Assembly: GCA_015490175.1 (NCBI GenBank)
Contig: WFYJ01000052.1
Span: forward strand, 10,974-74,973
Length of the DNA stretch: 64,000 bases
Direction of reading: 5' to 3'
DNA from: Saprospiraceae bacterium
GTDB taxonomy: Bacteria > Bacteroidota > Bacteroidia > Chitinophagales > Saprospiraceae
The translations under genes and the position numbers were made by a program. Shown piece by piece: positions 5,323-14,824 of this stretch; the stretch's first letter is position 1; every line of letters starts with the position of its first letter. The notes below the pieces were generated by a model. That model made no database searches. It worked only from the letters and a program-made list of their open reading frames with translations, and was not told where the DNA came from.

Positions 5323-5396
5323 GACTCCGTAGCTCAGCTGGTTAGAGCACTTGACTTTTAATCAAGGGGTCCTGGGTTCGAATCCCAGCGGAGTCA
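5323..5396 (+). tRNA. tRNA-Lys (anticodon UUU)
   Basis: Folded by hand into a cloverleaf: acceptor GACTCCG/CGGAGTC, D-arm GCTC/GAGC, anticodon stem CTTGA/TCAAG with loop CTTTTAA, T-arm CTGGG-TTCGAAT-CCCAG, discriminator A. CCA is not encoded. Confidence 0.9.
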
Positions 5397-5404
5397 CAAA
5401 TGCG

Positions 5405-5438
5405 AAAGCCGCGTTCGTGATCGAGCGCGGCTTTTTTT
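5405..5438 (+). terminator. rho-independent terminator after tRNA-Lys
   Basis: Stem GCCGCG (5408-5413) / CGCGGC (5426-5431) followed by T7 (5432-5438). Confidence 0.65.
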
Positions 5439-5498: not shown

Positions 5499-6242
5499 TT
5501 ACATGAACCTGCTGAGAAACTTGATGATGCGATTGACGTTGTAGCGAGCGTAAAGCGCCAGCGCCTTGTCGGCGCTTGCTTTGCCTTCCTCTGCGCGATC
5601 GGCCGCTGCCGCCGCCTCGTTGATATTGGCCGAAATGGCGGAAATGAGCAGGATGCGGCTCTCGGGATAAGGGATGCCGTACTTGCGGGCATACACCAGC
5701 AGGAAGCGGCAGATCTGCACGGCCATCTGGTTGAGGTCCTCCTTGCGAAACTCATCGCGCACCAAAGCGCACGACCGCAAGAACGTGCGATAGTATTCGC
5801 GCAGACAGCGATTGGTCAGCTTGACGGCCAACGTGTAGCGCCCCGCCAGAATGGCGCCGTCGATGCGCCGAAGGTATCGGTTTACTTTTTCGATTTGCTT
5901 TTCCCGCTCGGGCAGATCGGGCAGCCACTCTCCCCTGCCCTCGAGCATCATGCGCAGGTCGAACGTCTCGACCGGAAAGGCAAACTGGAGGTCTTCGCAC
6001 ACCTGGGCCACCACCTTTTTCAGGTCTTCTTCGGGCAGATCGAGCAGCAGGTGATACACGGCATTTGCGGTAAGCTGCTCACCAGGCCGGGGCACCCATA
6101 CACTCGAGTCGAACAGCTCGGGACGCGTCAGGCGAACGAGCGCATACAGGTTGCGCAGCGACCAGTTGGTCTCCGGCTTCCGCTCGGCTTTGCCAACCAG
6201 CTCAACCAGCTTTTCCGCAAGACGTGGCCCGTTGATTTCCAT
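5499..6242 (-). CDS. hypothetical all-alpha-looking protein (247 aa), family not recognised; downstream neighbour of the nuclease-helicase
   Basis: The track ORF 5499..6350 begins at TTG; the first ATG is at 6242 (MEINGPRLAEKLVEL...). The composition is protein-like and I recognise no motif. Confidence 0.6.
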   Translation of the reverse strand: MEINGPRLAEKLVELVGKAERKPETNWSLRNLYALVRLTRPELFDSSVWVPRPGEQLTANAVYHLLLDLPEEDLKKVVAQVCEDLQFAFPVETFDLRMMLEGRGEWLPDLPEREKQIEKVNRYLRRIDGAILAGRYTLAVKLTNRCLREYYRTFLRSCALVRDEFRKEDLNQMAVQICRFLLVYARKYGIPYPESRILLISAISANINEAAAAADRAEEGKASADKALALYARYNVNRIIKFLSRFM

Positions 6243-6403
6243 GCAGTTGAAAATTTTCACAAAGGTACGAACAGCCCATGGACAAATGAACGGTCGTTCA
6301 TTTTTTTTTAACGCCCGAACAGGCCTTTTCGCTGCGAACGATGGGCACAATCAGGCCGTTTTTCGTACGCTGTTGTGTGCATACCGACAAATGCCGACGA
6401 CAC

Positions 6404-9400
6404 TCAAATTTCGACGCGGTGGCAGCGGCGCAGCAGGTCGGCATACAGGCTCTGTGCGCAGAGGATCTCTTCGGCACCGACGACGATCATCTGCTCGCGA
6501 GCACGCGTCACGGCCACATTGAGCTTGCGATCGACACCCTCGTCATTGAGGTGCATGAGCATCTCGAGCTGCTGCAGCGAGTTGGTGCACAGTGAGAGGA
6601 TGATGATGTCGCGGGCGCCCCCCTGATAGCGCTCCACGGTGTCGATGGTCCAGCGATCGGGGTCAAGCCCCCTGTTGCTCAACACGCTGCGTATGGCGGC
6701 GATCTGGGCGCGGTAGGGCGTGATGACACCCAGGCTCGGCATGGCCGCTTCGCTGCCGTACATATCCTTGAGCGTGCGGATGATGCGCCCCACGGCCCGG
6801 GCTTCTGCCTCATTCTGCTTGCTGTTGCCGAATTCGGCGGGCTCGGTGGGGATGAACAGGAGGCGGTGGGTGGCAAGCGCCACAGCGAGGGGATCGTCCT
6901 TTTGCGGCAACGGCCGCTCAAGGGGACAAACCTGGCGCGCATGTCCGGGCACGCCTTCAGGCAGCAACTGCAGGTTGCCCTCATAGAAGGCCTCGTTGGC
7001 GAAAGCCATCAGCTCGGCATGCATGCGTCCCTGGTGGGTGAGTTTTGCGAAAGCATGACGCTGCCCCTTTTGCTGGTAAAGCACGAACAGCCGCTCAAAA
7101 AGCGAATTGCCCAGGTCTTTCAAGCCTATGTGCAAGAGCCGCCCATCCTGCACCCTGGTGAGGTGGCCGGGCTGGCCGACCACCGCCGGCAATTGCTTGT
7201 GATCGCCGATGAGCATGACGCGCTCGAAGCGCGGCAGCAGACCGGCCAGCATGGGTTCGGTGAGCTGCGAGGCCTCGTCGATGATGACGCGCTGGAACTG
7301 CTTCAGCTCGAACAGCTCGGGGCGGTTCATCATCGTGGACACCGTGCTCACGATGATGCGGCGCTCCTGCAACAGTTGCACCAGCTCGGCGCGCGTGCCG
7401 AGAGTCTTGAGGCGCTCGGAAAGCAACTGGCCGTGAAACTTCGGGTCAGTGGCATATTTCGACCCTACGCGCAGGTAACAATCCTCGATCGCCTTGCCTT
7501 CGGGCAGCCATTCCGGCCCGATCTGGTGGATCGCCGTGCAGATCTCATCGACCGCCCGATTGGTGTAGGCCAGCAACATGAAGTGCTCGTCGGTATGGCG
7601 CAGCAGCCAGGCCACCCATGCATGCAGCATCTTGCTCGTCTTGCCGGTGCCGGGCGGCCCCCACAGCAGGAACACTTCGCCGGCCTCGAGGCCCTGGCGA
7701 AACACCTCTTGCTGCTCGCGGGTCAGGCCTTCCGGCGGCTGGATGTCGCCTGCCGGATCGCCCTTGCGCGGAGCACGCCGTCCCAGCCAGAGTGCCCGCT
7801 TGTCCTTGTCCGCTTCCGCAAATGCAAAAAGGCTGCGATACAGCGAAATGAACGAGCTGTCGAGCAGGTCGGGCTCGAGGTTCCAGCGCGCGAACTGATC
7901 GAAGAATTCGGCATTGCTCTGGCGGGCCCGCAATCGCACCTTCACCACGTCGGAACCGGACTCCAGTACCGTGCACTTGAACAACTGATTGGACAGTGGA
8001 TGGCTGTCGGGGCCCGCAATCGGGTACAGCACGGCGATGTCGCCCTTTCGGAAATTGCTCAGCTCGCAGGTGTCTTCAGTTTTTCGGAATGTCAGGACAG
8101 GCTCGTCCTGGTGCACCCGATTCTCGACAATCTCCAGGTCGTTCAGAATTTCGAATCGCTCCTGCTTTTCGCGCAGCGAGGAGAGCCACAGGCTGGCCTG
8201 GCCACTGCGCATGCCCGCCCCATCGGCGCCCATTTTGGCATAGCGGTGCTCGCGCGCGATGAAACTCACGTAGGCCGCAAACCAGCGCTGCTCGATGGGG
8301 TCGAGCTGCTCGAGGGCTCTGGAAAAGCGCGTCAGGTCATTGCGCTGAAAACCGCTGAGGTTGGGGAAGCGATCGGGATGCAGTTTCAGCAGCAGTTGCC
8401 ACAGGCGCTTGAAGTCCTCTTCCCTCTGGTGGGGACGGGGCCGGCTCAGCTCGCGCTCGAGCCGGATGAGGCGGTTGCGTACCTGCAAGGCATCGTACTG
8501 GTGCGTCTCGATGCGCGGGGCGTAGCGCAGGGCCTGATCGTCGAGGCGCGAGTAGAGGATGTAGTTGCGCGGATTGCCGGCACTGCCAAAGGCCGACCTG
8601 ACGAGCAGGTCGTACAGCAGCGTCTGGGTAAAGTGATTGGTATTGAGGCCGTAGGCGTTCGGCCGAAACAGACCGCCACTTTTCAATTCGATGATGGCCG
8701 TCTGGTCGTCGGAAGGGCGATACAGCAGGTCGAGGCGGCCCTGCAACCCATAGATGTGGGAGAAGAAGGTGGGCTCGAGGTAGGCCTTCGCCGGCTCGAT
8801 GCCGTGGTCCGACTCGGGCAATTCCTTCAGGACGTTTTGCAGGTTCAGGAAGTGCGCACCGGCCCTGGTCAGCAATTTTCTAAGTTCTTGATCGCTCATT
8901 TTTGCGAAAGCAAAAGGGTTGAGCAGGAAGAACCCGCGCATGAACTCCTTGTTCCACTCCAGGCTCTGATCAACCACCAGCTCGTCGAGCATATGGTTGG
9001 CCAGGGTACCGAGGATCAGCGCCTCGGAAGTGGATCGGGGCAGGAAACGCCGCACGAGGTGCAACTCGGGCACTACCCCATCGGGCAAAAAGCACTCGGC
9101 TACGGCCGTCACGTCGATGAGGAAATCGGGTTCGAGCACGATGAGGCGTGGGCGCCATACCTCGTCTTCATCTACTACGTCGAGCAGATGGACCACCACG
9201 GGAAACCCGAAGCTGCGTTCGATATCGCGTTGGACTGCCTCGAAGTAGTCTTCATATCGGGCACGCGGCCCCACCCTGACGGTCCGGCCCTCTTCATCAA
9301 TGCCTTGCAAATACCCTTCGCTCACCCTCATCAGCACGAGCCGCGTCCACTCGGCCACGTGCTCGGCGGTGCGGTGCGGCACACTTCGGCTGGCCGGCGG

Positions 9401-9781
9401 CAACTGCTGGTCGAGCGGGGCGGGCACGGGCAATCCGCTCAGATGAGCCACGGCCTCGGCAAAGGCACGTGCGCTTTCCTGCCATTCCTCCTCGCTCCAA
9501 TGGCGTTTCTGTCCCCGTTCGTAGTGTTCCACCTTTCGCCGGAAGCGCTGCACGGCATACTGCAGCCATTCCGGCGTCTCCGTAGCCTGAAAGGCAAAAG
9601 CGATCCGCGAAAAAAGCGTGTAGAAATGCAGGCCCGAATCCTCGGTCATGGCCACGAAGAATCGCCGCATCAGGTCGGCAAGCAGCTCGATGCGCGATGC
9701 CACCGGCAGGTCTTCGGCGACCAGCCTGGTCAGTTTGGCAAAGAAATACCGACCGGTCAGCTCGGCTTTTTGCGGGTTCAC
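6404..9781 (-). CDS. PD-(D/E)XK (RecB/Cas4-like) nuclease fused to an Upf1/Dna2-like SF1B helicase (AAA_11/AAA_12 type), 1125 aa
   Basis: Nuclease motifs: YLEPTF, GRLDLLYRP, AIIELKSG, QTLLYDLL. Helicase motifs: LLWGPPGTGKTS (Walker A), VIIDEASQ (Walker B), LIGDHKQLPAVV, LTHQGRMH, VITPYRAQ, TVERYQGGARDIIILS, LNVAVTRAREQMIVVG. The start at 9781 is GTG, so the N-terminus is uncertain. Confidence 0.9.
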   Translation of the reverse strand: MNPQKAELTGRYFFAKLTRLVAEDLPVASRIELLADLMRRFFVAMTEDSGLHFYTLFSRIAFAFQATETPEWLQYAVQRFRRKVEHYERGQKRHWSEEEWQESARAFAEAVAHLSGLPVPAPLDQQLPPASRSVPHRTAEHVAEWTRLVLMRVSEGYLQGIDEEGRTVRVGPRARYEDYFEAVQRDIERSFGFPVVVHLLDVVDEDEVWRPRLIVLEPDFLIDVTAVAECFLPDGVVPELHLVRRFLPRSTSEALILGTLANHMLDELVVDQSLEWNKEFMRGFFLLNPFAFAKMSDQELRKLLTRAGAHFLNLQNVLKELPESDHGIEPAKAYLEPTFFSHIYGLQGRLDLLYRPSDDQTAIIELKSGGLFRPNAYGLNTNHFTQTLLYDLLVRSAFGSAGNPRNYILYSRLDDQALRYAPRIETHQYDALQVRNRLIRLERELSRPRPHQREEDFKRLWQLLLKLHPDRFPNLSGFQRNDLTRFSRALEQLDPIEQRWFAAYVSFIAREHRYAKMGADGAGMRSGQASLWLSSLREKQERFEILNDLEIVENRVHQDEPVLTFRKTEDTCELSNFRKGDIAVLYPIAGPDSHPLSNQLFKCTVLESGSDVVKVRLRARQSNAEFFDQFARWNLEPDLLDSSFISLYRSLFAFAEADKDKRALWLGRRAPRKGDPAGDIQPPEGLTREQQEVFRQGLEAGEVFLLWGPPGTGKTSKMLHAWVAWLLRHTDEHFMLLAYTNRAVDEICTAIHQIGPEWLPEGKAIEDCYLRVGSKYATDPKFHGQLLSERLKTLGTRAELVQLLQERRIIVSTVSTMMNRPELFELKQFQRVIIDEASQLTEPMLAGLLPRFERVMLIGDHKQLPAVVGQPGHLTRVQDGRLLHIGLKDLGNSLFERLFVLYQQKGQRHAFAKLTHQGRMHAELMAFANEAFYEGNLQLLPEGVPGHARQVCPLERPLPQKDDPLAVALATHRLLFIPTEPAEFGNSKQNEAEARAVGRIIRTLKDMYGSEAAMPSLGVITPYRAQIAAIRSVLSNRGLDPDRWTIDTVERYQGGARDIIILSLCTNSLQQLEMLMHLNDEGVDRKLNVAVTRAREQMIVVGAEEILCAQSLYADLLRRCHRVEI

Positions 9782-9835
9782 CTCTGCAGTTCAATTTTTT
9801 TTTGGCGAAAGCCGGAATATGTACCCGACGCTTTT

Positions 9836-9995
9836 TGACAATGGTCAATGGTCAATGGACTATAGACTTTTTGATCGAGGAACCGAGGAATGAGCCTGCT
9901 GAAAAAAGTCGGAAAATCATTCAGCTATACAGAGCATCCCCTGAGAATGCACTGAGTTTCACAGAGTTGCAAAACCAAACTCTGAACCATAAACT
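9836..9995. repeat. intergenic mosaic repeat cluster R2
   Basis: Contains (CAATGGT)n gacaatggtcaatggtcaatggactatagac, gaggaaccgagg, and ctgctgaaaaaagtcgg..cagctatacagagc..ctgagtttcacagagttgcaaaacc (a partial family-B unit). Confidence 0.8.
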
Positions 9996-10044: not shown

Positions 10045-11199
10045 TCAGGCCTCTTCGCCTCGCAAGATCTGGCGCGAGATGACGAGCTTCTGGATCTCGG
10101 ACGTGCCTTCGCCGATGGTACAGAGTTTGGCGTCGCGGTAATACTTTTCCACCGGGAACTCCTTGATGTAGCCGTAACCCCCAAAAATCTGCACGGCTTC
10201 GTTGGCCACCTGAACGGCTGTTTCGGAAGCGTAGAGCTTGGCCATGGCCGAGATGGTGGTCGTGCGCATGCCGGCATCTTTCCTGGCTCCGGCTTTGCGG
10301 GTGAGCAGCTCGGCAGCCTGAATCCTGGTGGCCATGTCGGCCAGCTTGAACGAGATGGCCTGGAAGTTGGCGATGGGCTGACCGAACTGGTGGCGCTCTT
10401 TCGAGTAAGCTACGGCAGCCTCGTAAGCGCCCTTGGCGATACCTACGGCCAGGGCAGCGATCGAGATGCGGCCGCCATCGAGGATCTTCATGGCCTGGAT
10501 GAAGCCATCGCCCACCTCACCCAGCACCTGGCTCTTGTGGATGCGGCAGTTGTCGAAAATCATCTCGGCCGTTTCCGAAGCACGCATGCCCAGCTTGTTC
10601 TCTTTCTTGCCCGCCATGAAGCCCGGCGTGCCCCGCTCCACGACAAAGGCCGTCATGCCGTGCTTGTCGAGCAGCTCGCCCGTGCGGGCAATGACCACGG
10701 CCACGTGGCCCGACTTGCCGTGTGTGATGAAGTTCTTGGTGCCATTGAGCACGTAGTAGTCGCCATCTTCCACGGCCACGCACTGCATGCGCGCCGCATC
10801 GCTGCCCGTGTTGGGTTCGGTAAGTCCCCATGCGCCGATCCACTCGCCCGATGCCAATTTGGGCAGATAGCGCTGTTTCTGCTCCTCGTTGCCGAACTGA
10901 AGAATATGATTGGTACACAGCGAGTTGTGTGCCGCCACCGACAGACCGATCGAGCCGCAGACTCGGGCAATCTCCTCGATGATGGTGATGTATTCCTGGT
11001 AGCCCAGCCCCGCGCCGCCATATTGCTCGGGCACGAGCACGCCCATGAAGCCGTACTCACCCATGCGGTGAAACAGATCAATGGGGAAATGCTGGGTTTC
11101 GTCCCATTCCATGACGTGTGGGCGGATATACTTTTCTGCAAAATCGCGCGCACTGTCGCGAATCATCGCGAGATTGTCCAACTGCTCGGTAGTAATCAT
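10045..11199 (-). CDS. acyl-CoA dehydrogenase (short/butyryl-CoA dehydrogenase-like)
   Basis: [34 protein letters not shown]..., [14 protein letters not shown], and C-terminal ...[18 protein letters not shown]. The true ATG is at 11199; the track ORF extends to 11550. Confidence 0.95.
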
Positions 11200-11317
11200 T
11201 GCACTTGTTTTGTTGGCATAAAATTCAGGAAGCGGCGTGAAGATAGGCCTCCATCGGCATGGATTGCAAACGGCAGGTCTTCGCGACGCCTGACAAAGCA
11301 AACCCGGCCGGCGGCGC

Positions 11318-12424
11318 TTACCAGCCCAGCAGGCGGCGCAAGCGTGCATGCACCTCGGTATTGTCCATGATGCCGCCGAAGGCCGCAGCCCCCGGTCCCC
11401 ACGCCAGCAGGGGCACCATCGTGGCGGTGTGGCTGTTGGTCGAGAAAGCTTCGACGAGGTGCCCCATGCGCGAAGGAGGAGGGATGGACATGCCGCCCGT
11501 CTCGTGATCGGCCGTGACCAGCACCAGGGTATGGCCGTCCGCTTCCGCAAAATCGAGGGCGGCCCCGATGGCCTGGTCCAGATCCTCTATTTCCCTGACG
11601 GTGAAATGCAGGTCGTTGGCATGGCCGCCCCAGTCGATCTGCGATCCCTCTATCATCAGGACAAAACCCTGCCCGCCCGCACATGTGGAAAGAAAGCGGG
11701 CGCCGAGGGTCGTAGCGCGTGCCAGCCAATTGCGCCCCGTTTCGGCGGCACTCGGATGGTTCCATGCTGCGAACCACGCAAAGCGACTGGCCCTGCGCAT
11801 CTGCGACCACGACAAGGGCCCGTCTTTGAAGGTCCGTACTTTCATGCCCTGCCACCGCAAGCTGTCCTTGAGGTCGGCCCCGTCTTCGCGCTCGACGAAA
11901 TACTTCAGCCCTCCCCCCACGAGGTAATCAACCCCCGAATGGACGATATCGGCAGCGATGTGGAAGTAGCGCGTGCGATGAGCTTCATGCGCCAGGAAGG
12001 CGGCCGGAGTAGCATGCGTCACCGCAGAGGTCACCACCACGCCCGTACACCCTCCGCGCGCCTCCATCTCTTCGAAAAGAGACCGACAGGGGCGGCCCAG
12101 CGAGTCCACCCCCACGGCGTGATTGTAGGTCTTGCAGCCACAGGCAAAAGCGGTGGCGCCCGCCGCCGAATCGGTGATCAGGTTGTCGGCCGAATGGGTT
12201 TTGACCAGCCCCACTACCTGCATGCGCTCGAAATGCATGGGCTTGCGCCTGCTGAAACGCGCTGCCGTCAACTGGGTCAGGCCCATGCCATCGCCAATGA
12301 TGAGGATGACATTGCGCGGCCGCTCGGCAGCCCGCCCTCCAGGCACGGGCCAGACGAAAGCCACGCCACATCCCCATATGGCCAGCGCAAGGAAGTAAAG
12401 ATTTCTTTGCAAAAAATCACTCAT
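11318..12424 (-). CDS. alkaline phosphatase (PhoA family), secreted
   Basis: Signal-like N-terminus, [10 protein letters not shown] and [13 protein letters not shown] (Ser nucleophile region), and GGHAND near the C-terminus. Confidence 0.9.
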
Positions 12425-12476
12425 GAGCCGTCAACTGTTGAAGCAACCCGGTGTTTCCGTTCGTTGTCCCTGAATT

Positions 12477-12689
12477 GGTGGTGTCCTTAAATAGATGATC
12501 GCGCATCCCTGAAATGGACCGGCTGCAAAAAGGTGTTGCGTATAGGGTTTAAAGTTTAAGGTTTAAGGTTTAAAGTTTTTCTTGTTGACTTTCAGTTTTT
12601 TGTCAAATCCTCGGTTCCTCAGCTATTGAAACCGCAGCCTTCGGCCGCAGAAAGTGCAGTCTGAAATCAGTTAATCGGGGACACTACCT
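12477..12689 (+). mobile_element. complete MITE-like unit (family A, about 213 bp) with terminal inverted repeats
   Basis: Left end GGTGGTGTCC (12477-12486) against right end GGACACTACC (12679-12688), 9/10 complementary. Interior: ttaaatagatgatcgcgcatcc..ggaccggctgcaaaaagg, (GGTTTAA)n, ttgtcaaatcctcggttcctc, accgcagccttcggccgcag. The direct repeat CTGAATT flanks it at 12470-12476 and 12690-12696. Related copies lie at 24392, 42159 and 62513 (reverse). Confidence 0.6.
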
Positions 12690-12812
12690 CTGAATTGAAC
12701 CTGTTGGATACAACGGCCGGCCTGTTGAAGCCCGAAAACGATGCATTCATCGAACAATTGTCGCGCGCATCGTGCACAAGGGCACAAATTTGCATCTGAA
12801 AAGCGAAATGCC

Positions 12813-14639: not shown

Positions 14640-14745
14640 CACTCACTTCACAGGCAGACGCGCTGCCGTGCGTCTCTACCTCAATCTCTCCGTCACTCCT
14701 CACTCCATCACTCTGTCACTCCCTCTCAAAATTCCCGGACCGGAT
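14640..14745. repeat. intergenic mosaic repeat cluster R4
   Basis: Contains ggcagacgcgctgccgtgcgtctctacc (hairpin module), a CT-rich ctcactcc-type tract, and aaaattcccggaccgg. Confidence 0.75.
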
Positions 14746-14786
14746 TGCGCTGGGTACATGCACGCGCACCCCGCCTGCAGGCAAGT

Positions 14787-14824
14787 CTTTCATTTTGAAA
14801 AAAGCGCCCCTTTCAAAATGAAAG
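14787..14824. repeat. perfect 14-bp inverted repeat with a 10-nt spacer
   Basis: CTTTCATTTTGAAA (14787-14800) and TTTCAAAATGAAAG (14811-14824). Confidence 0.8.

Follow-up and report, generated by a model that had tools for sequence, protein, structure and literature searches.

Introduction

Bad of Geobacillus stearothermophilus is a monomeric, DNA2-like protein in which a RecB-family nuclease at the N-terminus is joined to an SF1B helicase at the C-terminus; no physiological role has been assigned to it (PMC7430649). Its Fe-S cluster is held by four Cys residues, the signature by which it was identified, and proteins of the Bad type were described as few in number and sporadic; they were recorded from Firmicutes and Proteobacteria, and a second class of them from Mycobacteria (PMC7430649). 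Bad was the only biochemically characterised bacterial enzyme of this architecture found in the literature searched. The structures of mouse Dna2 (PDB 5EAN, 5EAW and 5EAX; PMC4716839) lead from an N-terminal region through a RecB-type PD-(D/E)XK nuclease and a stalked beta-barrel to the SF1B domains 1A and 2A; this enzyme also has a four-Cys Fe-S cluster.

The window analysed here is a stretch of 64,000 nucleotides from contig WFYJ01000052.1 of a Saprospiraceae bacterium. A sequence-only reading had noted in it a pair of genes, encoding a nuclease-helicase of 1125 aa and an unrecognisable 247-aa protein, between tRNA-Lys and a repeat cluster, and had considered either a housekeeping Dna2-like repair role or a role in defence. 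Both ORFs, the motifs quoted, the tRNA-Lys gene, the 161-nt gap and the palindrome with its T9 run were all found where that reading had placed them (Table 1). An ORF of 990 aa at 6866–9838 (+) was discarded as a high-GC shadow antisense to the helicase gene, its apparent homologues being all antisense to orthologues of that gene.

Table 1. Features of the nuclease-helicase locus (positions in the window).
Feature	Position	Strand	Remarks
tRNA-Lys(UUU)	5323–5397	+	strong hairpin terminator downstream, 5404–5435
247-aa all-alpha protein gene, function unassigned	5499–6242	−	ORF, ATG start; longest version from TTG at 6350, 283 aa
Intergenic gap, helicase gene to 247-aa gene	6243–6403	−	161 nt
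Dna2-like nuclease-helicase gene	6404–9781	−	ORF, 1125 aa, GTG start
SF1B (Upf1/Dna2-type) helicase core, aa 688–1120	6422–7720	−	Pfam AAA_11 + AAA_12; mouse DNA2 180 bits
Nuclease catalytic core, aa 336–390	8611–8776	−	E336, D351, E365-x-K367, Q386-x3-Y390
Acyl-CoA dehydrogenase gene	10045–11550		
Alkaline phosphatase gene	11318–12424		

Results and Discussion

Domain Architecture and Fold of the 1125-aa Protein

The protein starts with a helical N-terminal part and a beta-rich part (aa 1–216), followed by a PD-(D/E)XK nuclease domain (about aa 217–540), a beta-barrel with stalk (about aa 546–665; strands at 546–637 and helices at 642–665 in the AlphaFold model) and a C-terminal SF1B helicase with Walker A at aa 708–715 and DEAS at 835–838. 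A RecB-family nuclease thus precedes the helicase within one polypeptide, with the barrel and stalk between them as in the Dna2 domain arrangement. The nuclease motifs YLEPTF, GRLDLL, IIELK and QTLLY lie at aa 334, 348, 363 and 386, and the helicase motifs GPPGTGKT, IIDEASQ, LIGDHKQLPAVV and VITPYRAQ at aa 708, 833, 857 and 1019, respectively. In an alignment of 39 homologues (42–83% identity) the RecB-type nuclease residues E336, D351, E365, K367, Q386 and Y390 were invariant, as were the Walker A, DEAS, Q and R motifs of the helicase, the ATPase motifs being intact.

The helicase half matches Pfam AAA_11 and AAA_12, and in a profile search of PDB sequences its best match was DNA2 (180 bits, profile positions 666–1106), against 123 bits for Upf1. 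The profile of the nuclease domain had no match among PDB sequences, even at E 10. Sub-threshold Pfam matches to PF08696 (Dna2, about aa 213–281) and PDDEXK_1 (about aa 338–436) were weak and collinear, in the expected order, and PDDEXK_1 matched 19 of the 39 family members. Several homologues carry the label "Dna2" at JGI.

The AlphaFold (AF2) model of the 1125-aa protein had a pLDDT of 87.8 and a pTM of 0.87. The best Foldseek matches in the PDB were the mouse Dna2 structures 5EAW, 5EAN and 5EAX (E 1.6e-42), and the superposition spanned the whole chain, with 1105–1118 aligned columns and TMq 0.63/TMt 0.67; for 5EAW, the predicted model aligned over 1106 columns at TM 0.63–0.67. The runners-up, Ighmbp2 and Upf1, covered the helicase and nothing else. 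The earlier comparison with Dna2 therefore holds, Dna2 being the top match both in structure and in PDB sequence, and as judged from the predicted model the protein is a bacterial Dna2-type nuclease-helicase. The four-part anatomy proposed before stands for the nuclease, the beta-rich insert and the SF1B helicase, but not for an N-terminal module of about 330 aa of unknown function, as in the model this region forms part of the Dna2-like architecture.

Absence of the Fe-S Cluster Ligands

Dna2/Bad-type enzymes have four conserved Cys for a 4Fe-4S cluster across the nuclease domain. In the 1125-aa protein C230 is the sole Cys of this domain, and the Cys triad of the Dna2/AddB/Cas4 cluster was not found in the protein. 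After the QxxxY motif each of the 39 family members has 0–1 Cys. The Cys positions and this family-wide check bear out the previous remark that no Cys cluster for an Fe-S centre was visible. C230 is conserved in 95% of family members and may be what remains of the first cluster ligand.

Distribution and Neighbourhood

The part comprising the N-terminal region, nuclease and barrel was present in 291 of 301 Saprospiraceae genomes and in 151 of 154 genera (97% and 98%), nearly always in single copy; the source genome has one copy. Since the ten genomes without the gene include some that are 100% complete, the gene is dispensable in some lineages. Identity drops with taxonomic distance, from 56–84% within the genus to 31–49% within the family and 26–35% in other families. 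As the gene is single-copy in nearly every genome of the family, the protein most likely belongs to the housekeeping machinery of DNA maintenance and not to an anti-phage system, so that of the two roles first considered the repair role is favoured. The sequence-only reading had named, as evidence against a defence pair, a universally conserved single-copy helicase in a syntenic, non-defence neighbourhood without linkage to the 247-aa gene; what we see is a near-universal single-copy orthologue in non-defence surroundings, unlinked to the 247-aa gene outside the genus.

The neighbouring genes are housekeeping genes that differ from clade to clade and keep their synteny within a clade; a block of about 17 kb around the nuclease-helicase gene is syntenic within the genus, and from genus to genus the non-defence neighbourhood changes. 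When the ORFs lying up to 8 kb to either side of 14 orthologues were compared all against all, no conserved partner gene emerged. A family of about 210 aa occurred in 4 of the 14 loci, in convergent or distant position. Some relatives carry a Peptidase_C14-EAD11 gene near the nuclease-helicase gene.

The tRNA-Lys gene shows no sign of being an integration target. Neither a duplicate of its 3' end, as had already been remarked, nor an integrase or a GC shift was seen in the window, and the GC content of the nuclease-helicase locus is ordinary. The features of tRNA-linked defence or mobile islands, namely patchy presence, an integrase or att repeat and defence neighbours, are thus lacking, and with no boundary, an unduplicated tRNA 3' end and housekeeping neighbours the island reading is not sustained. 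The repeat cluster said to flank the pair is separated from it by the acyl-CoA dehydrogenase and alkaline phosphatase genes, the nearest repeat-like elements being at about 12470–12700 and 14650–14800; right beside the pair there were chance-level short repeats and nothing more.

On these grounds it is likely that the nuclease-helicase gene belongs to the vertically inherited core of the Saprospiraceae and encodes a stand-alone Dna2-type enzyme, with the 247-aa gene as an unrelated neighbour.

The 247-aa Neighbour and Alternative Readings

The 247-aa protein, called unrecognisable at the outset, had no match in Pfam, NCBIfam, PADLOC, PHROGs or the PDB; its model (pLDDT 63) was confident over aa 1–100 alone and gave nothing in Foldseek at E < 1. 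In the direction of the genes, an A9 run is followed in the gap by the palindrome TGAACGACCGTTCA and, about 20 nt before the ATG, by TAccTTTG (on the + strand, palindrome at 6287–6300 and T9 run at 6301–6309). This element, conserved as TAnnTTTG in the three species of the genus, fits the −7 element of the published Bacteroidetes promoter consensus, and the 247-aa gene seems to be served by a Bacteroidota-type promoter of its own. A functional pair within the genus, co-transcribed or interacting and recently acquired, would agree with the shared strand, with the adjacency in all three species (gap 70–161 nt) and with the lack of a canonical terminator between the two genes on the gene strand. 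Such a pair is nevertheless improbable, given the promoter-like element. Moreover, adjacency is confined to this genus and, with synteny there extending over all of the roughly 17-kb block, is uninformative. Homologues with 37–41% identity in other Saprospiraceae follow FTHFS and CbiA/AAA_26 genes and not the helicase gene, the downstream gene differs in each of 12 other genera, and a profile of the 247-aa family matched the same-genus loci alone. The 247-aa gene is a lineage-restricted, unrelated neighbour, to all appearance separately promoted, and belongs to no conserved system; the two-gene reading is not supported.

An anti-phage or anti-plasmid nuclease-helicase of the Nhi or Mokosh type, in a single- or two-gene system on a tRNA-Lys-linked island, is very unlikely. 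Nhi and Mokosh helicases share the composition of nuclease plus Upf1-like helicase, the pair adjoins a tRNA gene, the peptidase gene mentioned above is close by in some relatives, the PADLOC MkoA models matched at E 4e-57, and the NCBIfam models PLuB_AAA (the best NCBIfam match) and ProA scored 233 and 66 bits. These matches, however, extend over no more than the barrel region or the generic core of SF1B helicases: MkoA and MkoC matched aa 786–1110 of the helicase core alone, PLuB helicase-like (NF040671) aa 536–1120, and Nhi, at an insignificant 10.8 bits (E 0.033), 30 residues around Walker A. PLuB_AAA and ProA fall far under their cut-offs of 999 and 1500 bits, and no description of PLuB was found in the literature searched. 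A full-length MkoA/MkoC match was not obtained, and the scanned neighbouring genes had none of the PLD domains expected of a Mokosh partner. Membership of a defence system was rejected on the partial, helicase-only, sub-threshold matches from PADLOC, NCBIfam and PHROGs; no phage-family or viral full-length relatives were found, no island marks or conserved partner accompany the gene, and its distribution is near-universal whereas defence genes are patchy. An enzyme of RNA processing or decay is also unlikely, although the nearest helicase relatives after Dna2 are the RNA or RNA/DNA helicases Upf1, Ighmbp2, Sen1 and SETX, and TIGR00376 (IGHMBP2 family) scored 161 bits. Against it, Dna2 ranks first in sequence and structure and is alone in covering the whole chain, and to our knowledge RecB-type PD-(D/E)XK domains with QxxxY are DNA nucleases in every characterised case.

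Proposed Mechanism and Significance

For the Dna2-type enzyme preferred here, the fold match is our basis for inferring whether DNA or RNA is the substrate, the polarity and the threading; the role in the cell is likewise inferred. By analogy with mouse Dna2 and Bad, a free 5' ssDNA end would thread through the PD-(D/E)XK nuclease and the beta-barrel with stalk to reach the SF1B motor, which would translocate 5'→3' driven by ATP. The nuclease would cut the threaded strand endonucleolytically, and 5' flaps or overhangs would thus be trimmed at replication or repair intermediates. In Dna2, AddB, Cas4 and Bad a 4Fe-4S cluster braces the nuclease domain; here all this would proceed in its absence. 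The source genome has separate genes for AddA-like (1114 aa) and AddB-like (933 aa) proteins, which probably take care of end resection; a complementary distribution with AddAB was dropped, both being present.

We see an even chance that the Saprospiraceae proteins form a hitherto undescribed clade of bacterial Dna2 homologues that have no Fe-S cluster but the full eukaryotic architecture, are encoded by a family-wide core genome-maintenance gene and are also conserved in several further lineages of Bacteroidota. In that case neither the fold nor the mechanism of Dna2 would require the cluster, a Dna2-type pathway of 5'-flap and 5'-end processing would run beside AddAB in these bacteria, and the clade could serve as a simpler, oxygen-insensitive model of Dna2-type threading nuclease-motors. 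For annotation, the gene should be called Dna2-like nuclease-helicase instead of "AAA family ATPase" or "DEAD/DEAH box helicase", and both it and its 247-aa neighbour should be left out of counts of defence systems.

Comparison with Known Systems

With Mokosh MkoA/MkoC, Nhi, PLuB and ProA the protein shares the SF1B Upf1-like helicase core, and with PLuB_AAA also the pre-helicase region of aa 536–690; it differs from them in that the matches are limited to the C-terminal half, well below curated cut-offs, their partner genes are missing here and the gene is distributed as a core gene. AddAB and RecBCD likewise couple a RecB-family nuclease (E, D, ExK, QxxxY) to an SF1 motor, but in AddA and RecB the helicase is SF1A (UvrD-like), the nuclease is C-terminal and the enzymes work as heteromers. 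Mouse Dna2 has the same order of domains over the whole chain, at a sequence identity of just 19%; its Fe-S cluster has no counterpart in the 1125-aa protein, whose N-terminal 200 aa or so are lineage-specific. RPA is missing from bacteria, and the bacterial gene, absent from some genomes of the family, is probably non-essential there. Bad, compared by its published description, differs in its Fe-S cluster. Bad-type proteins, defined by an Fe-S nuclease domain, were few and sporadic in the earlier description (PMC7430649), whereas the Saprospiraceae clade combines the full Dna2 architecture without the cluster and is near-universal in one Bacteroidota family.

Results and Discussion

Identity of the 1125-aa Protein

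The ORFs, the quoted motifs, the tRNA-Lys gene and the 161-nt gap with its palindrome and T9 run, all described in the sequence-only reading, were found in place.

Features of the nuclease-helicase locus and motifs of the 1125-aa protein
Feature	Position	Strand	Details
tRNA-Lys(UUU)	5323-5397	+	strong hairpin terminator after it
247-aa protein gene	5499-6242	-	ATG start
Gap between both genes	6243-6403		161 nt; palindrome 6287-6300; T9 run 6301-6309
Promoter-like stretch upstream of 247-aa gene	within 6243-6403		TACCTTTG
Dna2-like nuclease-helicase gene	6404-9781	-	1125 aa, GTG start
1125-aa protein, nuclease motifs	aa 334; 348; 363; 386		YLEPTF; GRLDLL; IIELK; QTLLY
1125-aa protein, helicase motifs	aa 708; 833; 857; 1019		Walker A; IIDEASQ; LIGDHKQLPAVV; VITPYRAQ

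Pfam analysis of the 1125-aa protein detected the SF1B helicase only (AAA_11 and AAA_12, aa 688-1104). In an alignment of 39 homologues (42-83% identity) residues E336, D351, E365, K367, Q386 and Y390 were invariant, as were all the helicase motifs. PDDEXK_1 was assigned in 19 of these 39 members and PF08696 (Dna2) in five, and the excised nuclease region matched PF08696 (about aa 213-281) and PDDEXK_1 (about aa 338-436) collinearly, both below threshold. The family profile searched against PDB sequences gave mouse DNA2 as the top match (180 bits; Upf1, 123 bits), and some homologues are already named Dna2 in the JGI automatic annotation.

The AlphaFold2 model of the protein was confident (pLDDT 87.8, pTM 0.87), and Foldseek ranked three crystal structures of mouse Dna2 at the top, over 1105-1118 aligned columns (E 1.6e-42; TM 0.63 by query and 0.67 by target). 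All later matches (Ighmbp2, Upf1, Sen1 and nsp13) covered the helicase half only, and those from the viral structure library were to the helicase only. The comparison with Dna2 made from the sequence is thus borne out by both the profile and the structure search. Since the superposition on Dna2 is full-length, the N-terminal region, present as described but taken to be of unknown function, is the N-terminal part of a Dna2-type nuclease module, and the beta-rich insert, rightly noted, is a Dna2/Upf1-type beta-barrel.

The CX2CX5C triad of Dna2, AddB and Cas4 sits after the QxxxY motif. Among the 39 homologues 0-1 Cys per member follows this motif and no conserved Cys cluster was found, in agreement with the lack of an Fe-S cluster already remarked in the nuclease; the nuclease domain of the 1125-aa protein holds a single Cys, C230. 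The Fe-S Cys signature of the Dna2-type nuclease has been described (PMC7430649).

A 990-aa antisense frame (6866-9838, + strand) lies opposite the helicase gene. It was rejected as a gene, being a high-GC shadow ORF of which every "homologue" is antisense to an orthologue.

Distribution and Genomic Neighbourhood

The named sources of homologues were relatives of Lewinella, Phaeodactylibacter and Haliscomenobacter (Saprospiraceae), and the full-length protein was present as one copy, with 31-84% identity, in 23 of the 25 Saprospiraceae genomes sampled first. A family census with aa 1-680 as the query, the generic helicase being left out, detected the gene in 291/301 genomes and 151/154 genera, almost always single; the genome studied here has one copy. 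Phylum-wide, 30 of 301 genomes were positive, grouped in several other families in which about aa 200-675 and the helicase are conserved. Among 1.8 billion representatives, about 1150 clusters (50% identity) matched the N-terminal 680 aa, and the 150 matches listed were mostly 1000-1170 aa long, the rest being fragment-like, plus one of 1425 aa. Identity drops with taxonomic distance and the GC content is unremarkable. By this pattern the Dna2-like gene is a vertically inherited core gene and not a defence gene.

Many other Saprospiraceae possess a second SF1B helicase (about 640-650 aa, IGHMBP2-like) with about 30% identity to the helicase half; no such paralogue was found in the genome studied here at E <= 0.001.

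The neighbours in the window are housekeeping genes (LpxB, SurE, ferrochelatase, tRNA-Lys, acyl-CoA dehydrogenase and alkaline phosphatase, and further LigT-like phosphoesterase, sensor kinase and PurL), a block syntenic in both other species of the genus and in 0/12 other genera. All-against-all ORF comparison revealed no conserved neighbour of the Dna2-like gene, and the annotated contexts in seven other genomes were non-defence, with clade-level synteny of their own. There the order is Peptidase_C14-EAD11, ECF sigma/FecR/TonB receptor, helicase, epimerase and BatA.

In Phaeodactylibacter-like relatives the Dna2-like gene has a syntenic neighbour that combines Peptidase_C14 (caspase-like) with EAD11 (loci L038, 5876-6997; L041, 253-1650; L043, 188-1585; locus-internal coordinates). 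The two genes adjoin directly in P. luteus, 3 nt apart; in the other cases the ECF sigma/FecR/TonB receptor cluster lies between them. The arrangement probably reflects synteny at the level of the clade and no functional tie, but EAD domains are characteristic of conflict systems. In one Lewinellaceae MAG the gene for a 230-aa DUF3843 protein (locus L039, 10377-11069) begins 1 nt past the helicase stop and may be co-transcribed with the helicase gene, an arrangement not seen in the other loci examined.

The longest acyl-CoA dehydrogenase ORF (10045-11550, - strand), 501 aa when read from a TTG codon, probably reaches too far upstream: Pfam domains are recognised from about aa 128 onwards, and the alignment with a same-genus relative opens at aa 118. 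The true start likely lies about 115 codons downstream, so that most of the overlap with the alkaline phosphatase ORF would be gone.

The 247-aa Gene

Just 13 cluster-level relatives of the 247-aa protein were found, all from Saprospiraceae where the organism is named. Those outside the genus do not adjoin the helicase gene; they follow FTHFS and a CbiA/AAA_26 gene, with UvrA and PriA close by. The family profile detected the protein in same-genus loci only. The protein model was confident for aa 1-100 only and matched no known fold. Within the gap, TAccTTTG stands about 20 nt before the ATG, after the A9 run and the palindrome, and this element is kept as TAnnTTTG in 3/3 species of the genus. 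It fits the Bacteroidetes -7 promoter consensus, so the 247-aa gene is likely transcribed separately from the helicase gene.

Both genes have an A8-9 run and then T(T)GAAC shortly upstream of the start (9790-9860 and 6243-6310; gene-strand sequences aaaaaaaaattgaactgcagagGTG and ttttcaactgcATG), and AACTGC immediately precedes both start codons; this likeness may be due to chance. The mini-repeat CCATTGA occurs three times at 9839-9858.

Role and Comparison with Known Systems

The sequence-only reading had also considered the two genes as a defence or island pair of the Nhi or Mokosh type. The PADLOC models MkoA, MkoC, PDC-S37 and DpdJ and the NCBIfam models PLuB_AAA, ProA and Hhe did match the Dna2-like protein, but in the helicase core or the barrel plus helicase only; PLuB_AAA scored 233 bits where its cut-off is 999, the Nhi model reached E 0.033, and the PHROGs search gave no match. 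With these partial matches and the core-gene distribution, a defence role is very improbable, and the two-gene framing finds no support either. The tRNA 3' end is not duplicated in the window, and the "repeat cluster" does not adjoin the pair, since the acyl-CoA dehydrogenase and alkaline phosphatase genes intervene before the nearest repeat-like elements.

With Dna2 (PMC4716839) and Bad, the bacterial DNA2-like helicase-nuclease of Geobacillus stearothermophilus (PMC7430649), taken as models, a 5' ssDNA end would reach the SF1B motor by threading through the nuclease domain; the motor would travel 5'->3' and the nuclease would trim the threaded strand, by which 5' flaps or overhangs would be processed. 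The same genome also encodes AddA-like and AddB-like proteins, and the Dna2-like enzyme is therefore not the sole resection machine; Bad is described as having no established physiological role (PMC7430649).

The protein is of a kind already known, the Dna2 and Bad-type nuclease-helicases. The Fe-S cluster, a defining feature of those enzymes, is however absent in the Saprospiraceae clade, where the whole Dna2-like fold is kept. Bacterial Dna2-like proteins have been described as "few and sporadic" (PMC7430649), whereas nearly all genomes of one bacterial family carry the gene described here. This distribution, the missing Fe-S cluster and the retention of the fold are the three new points.
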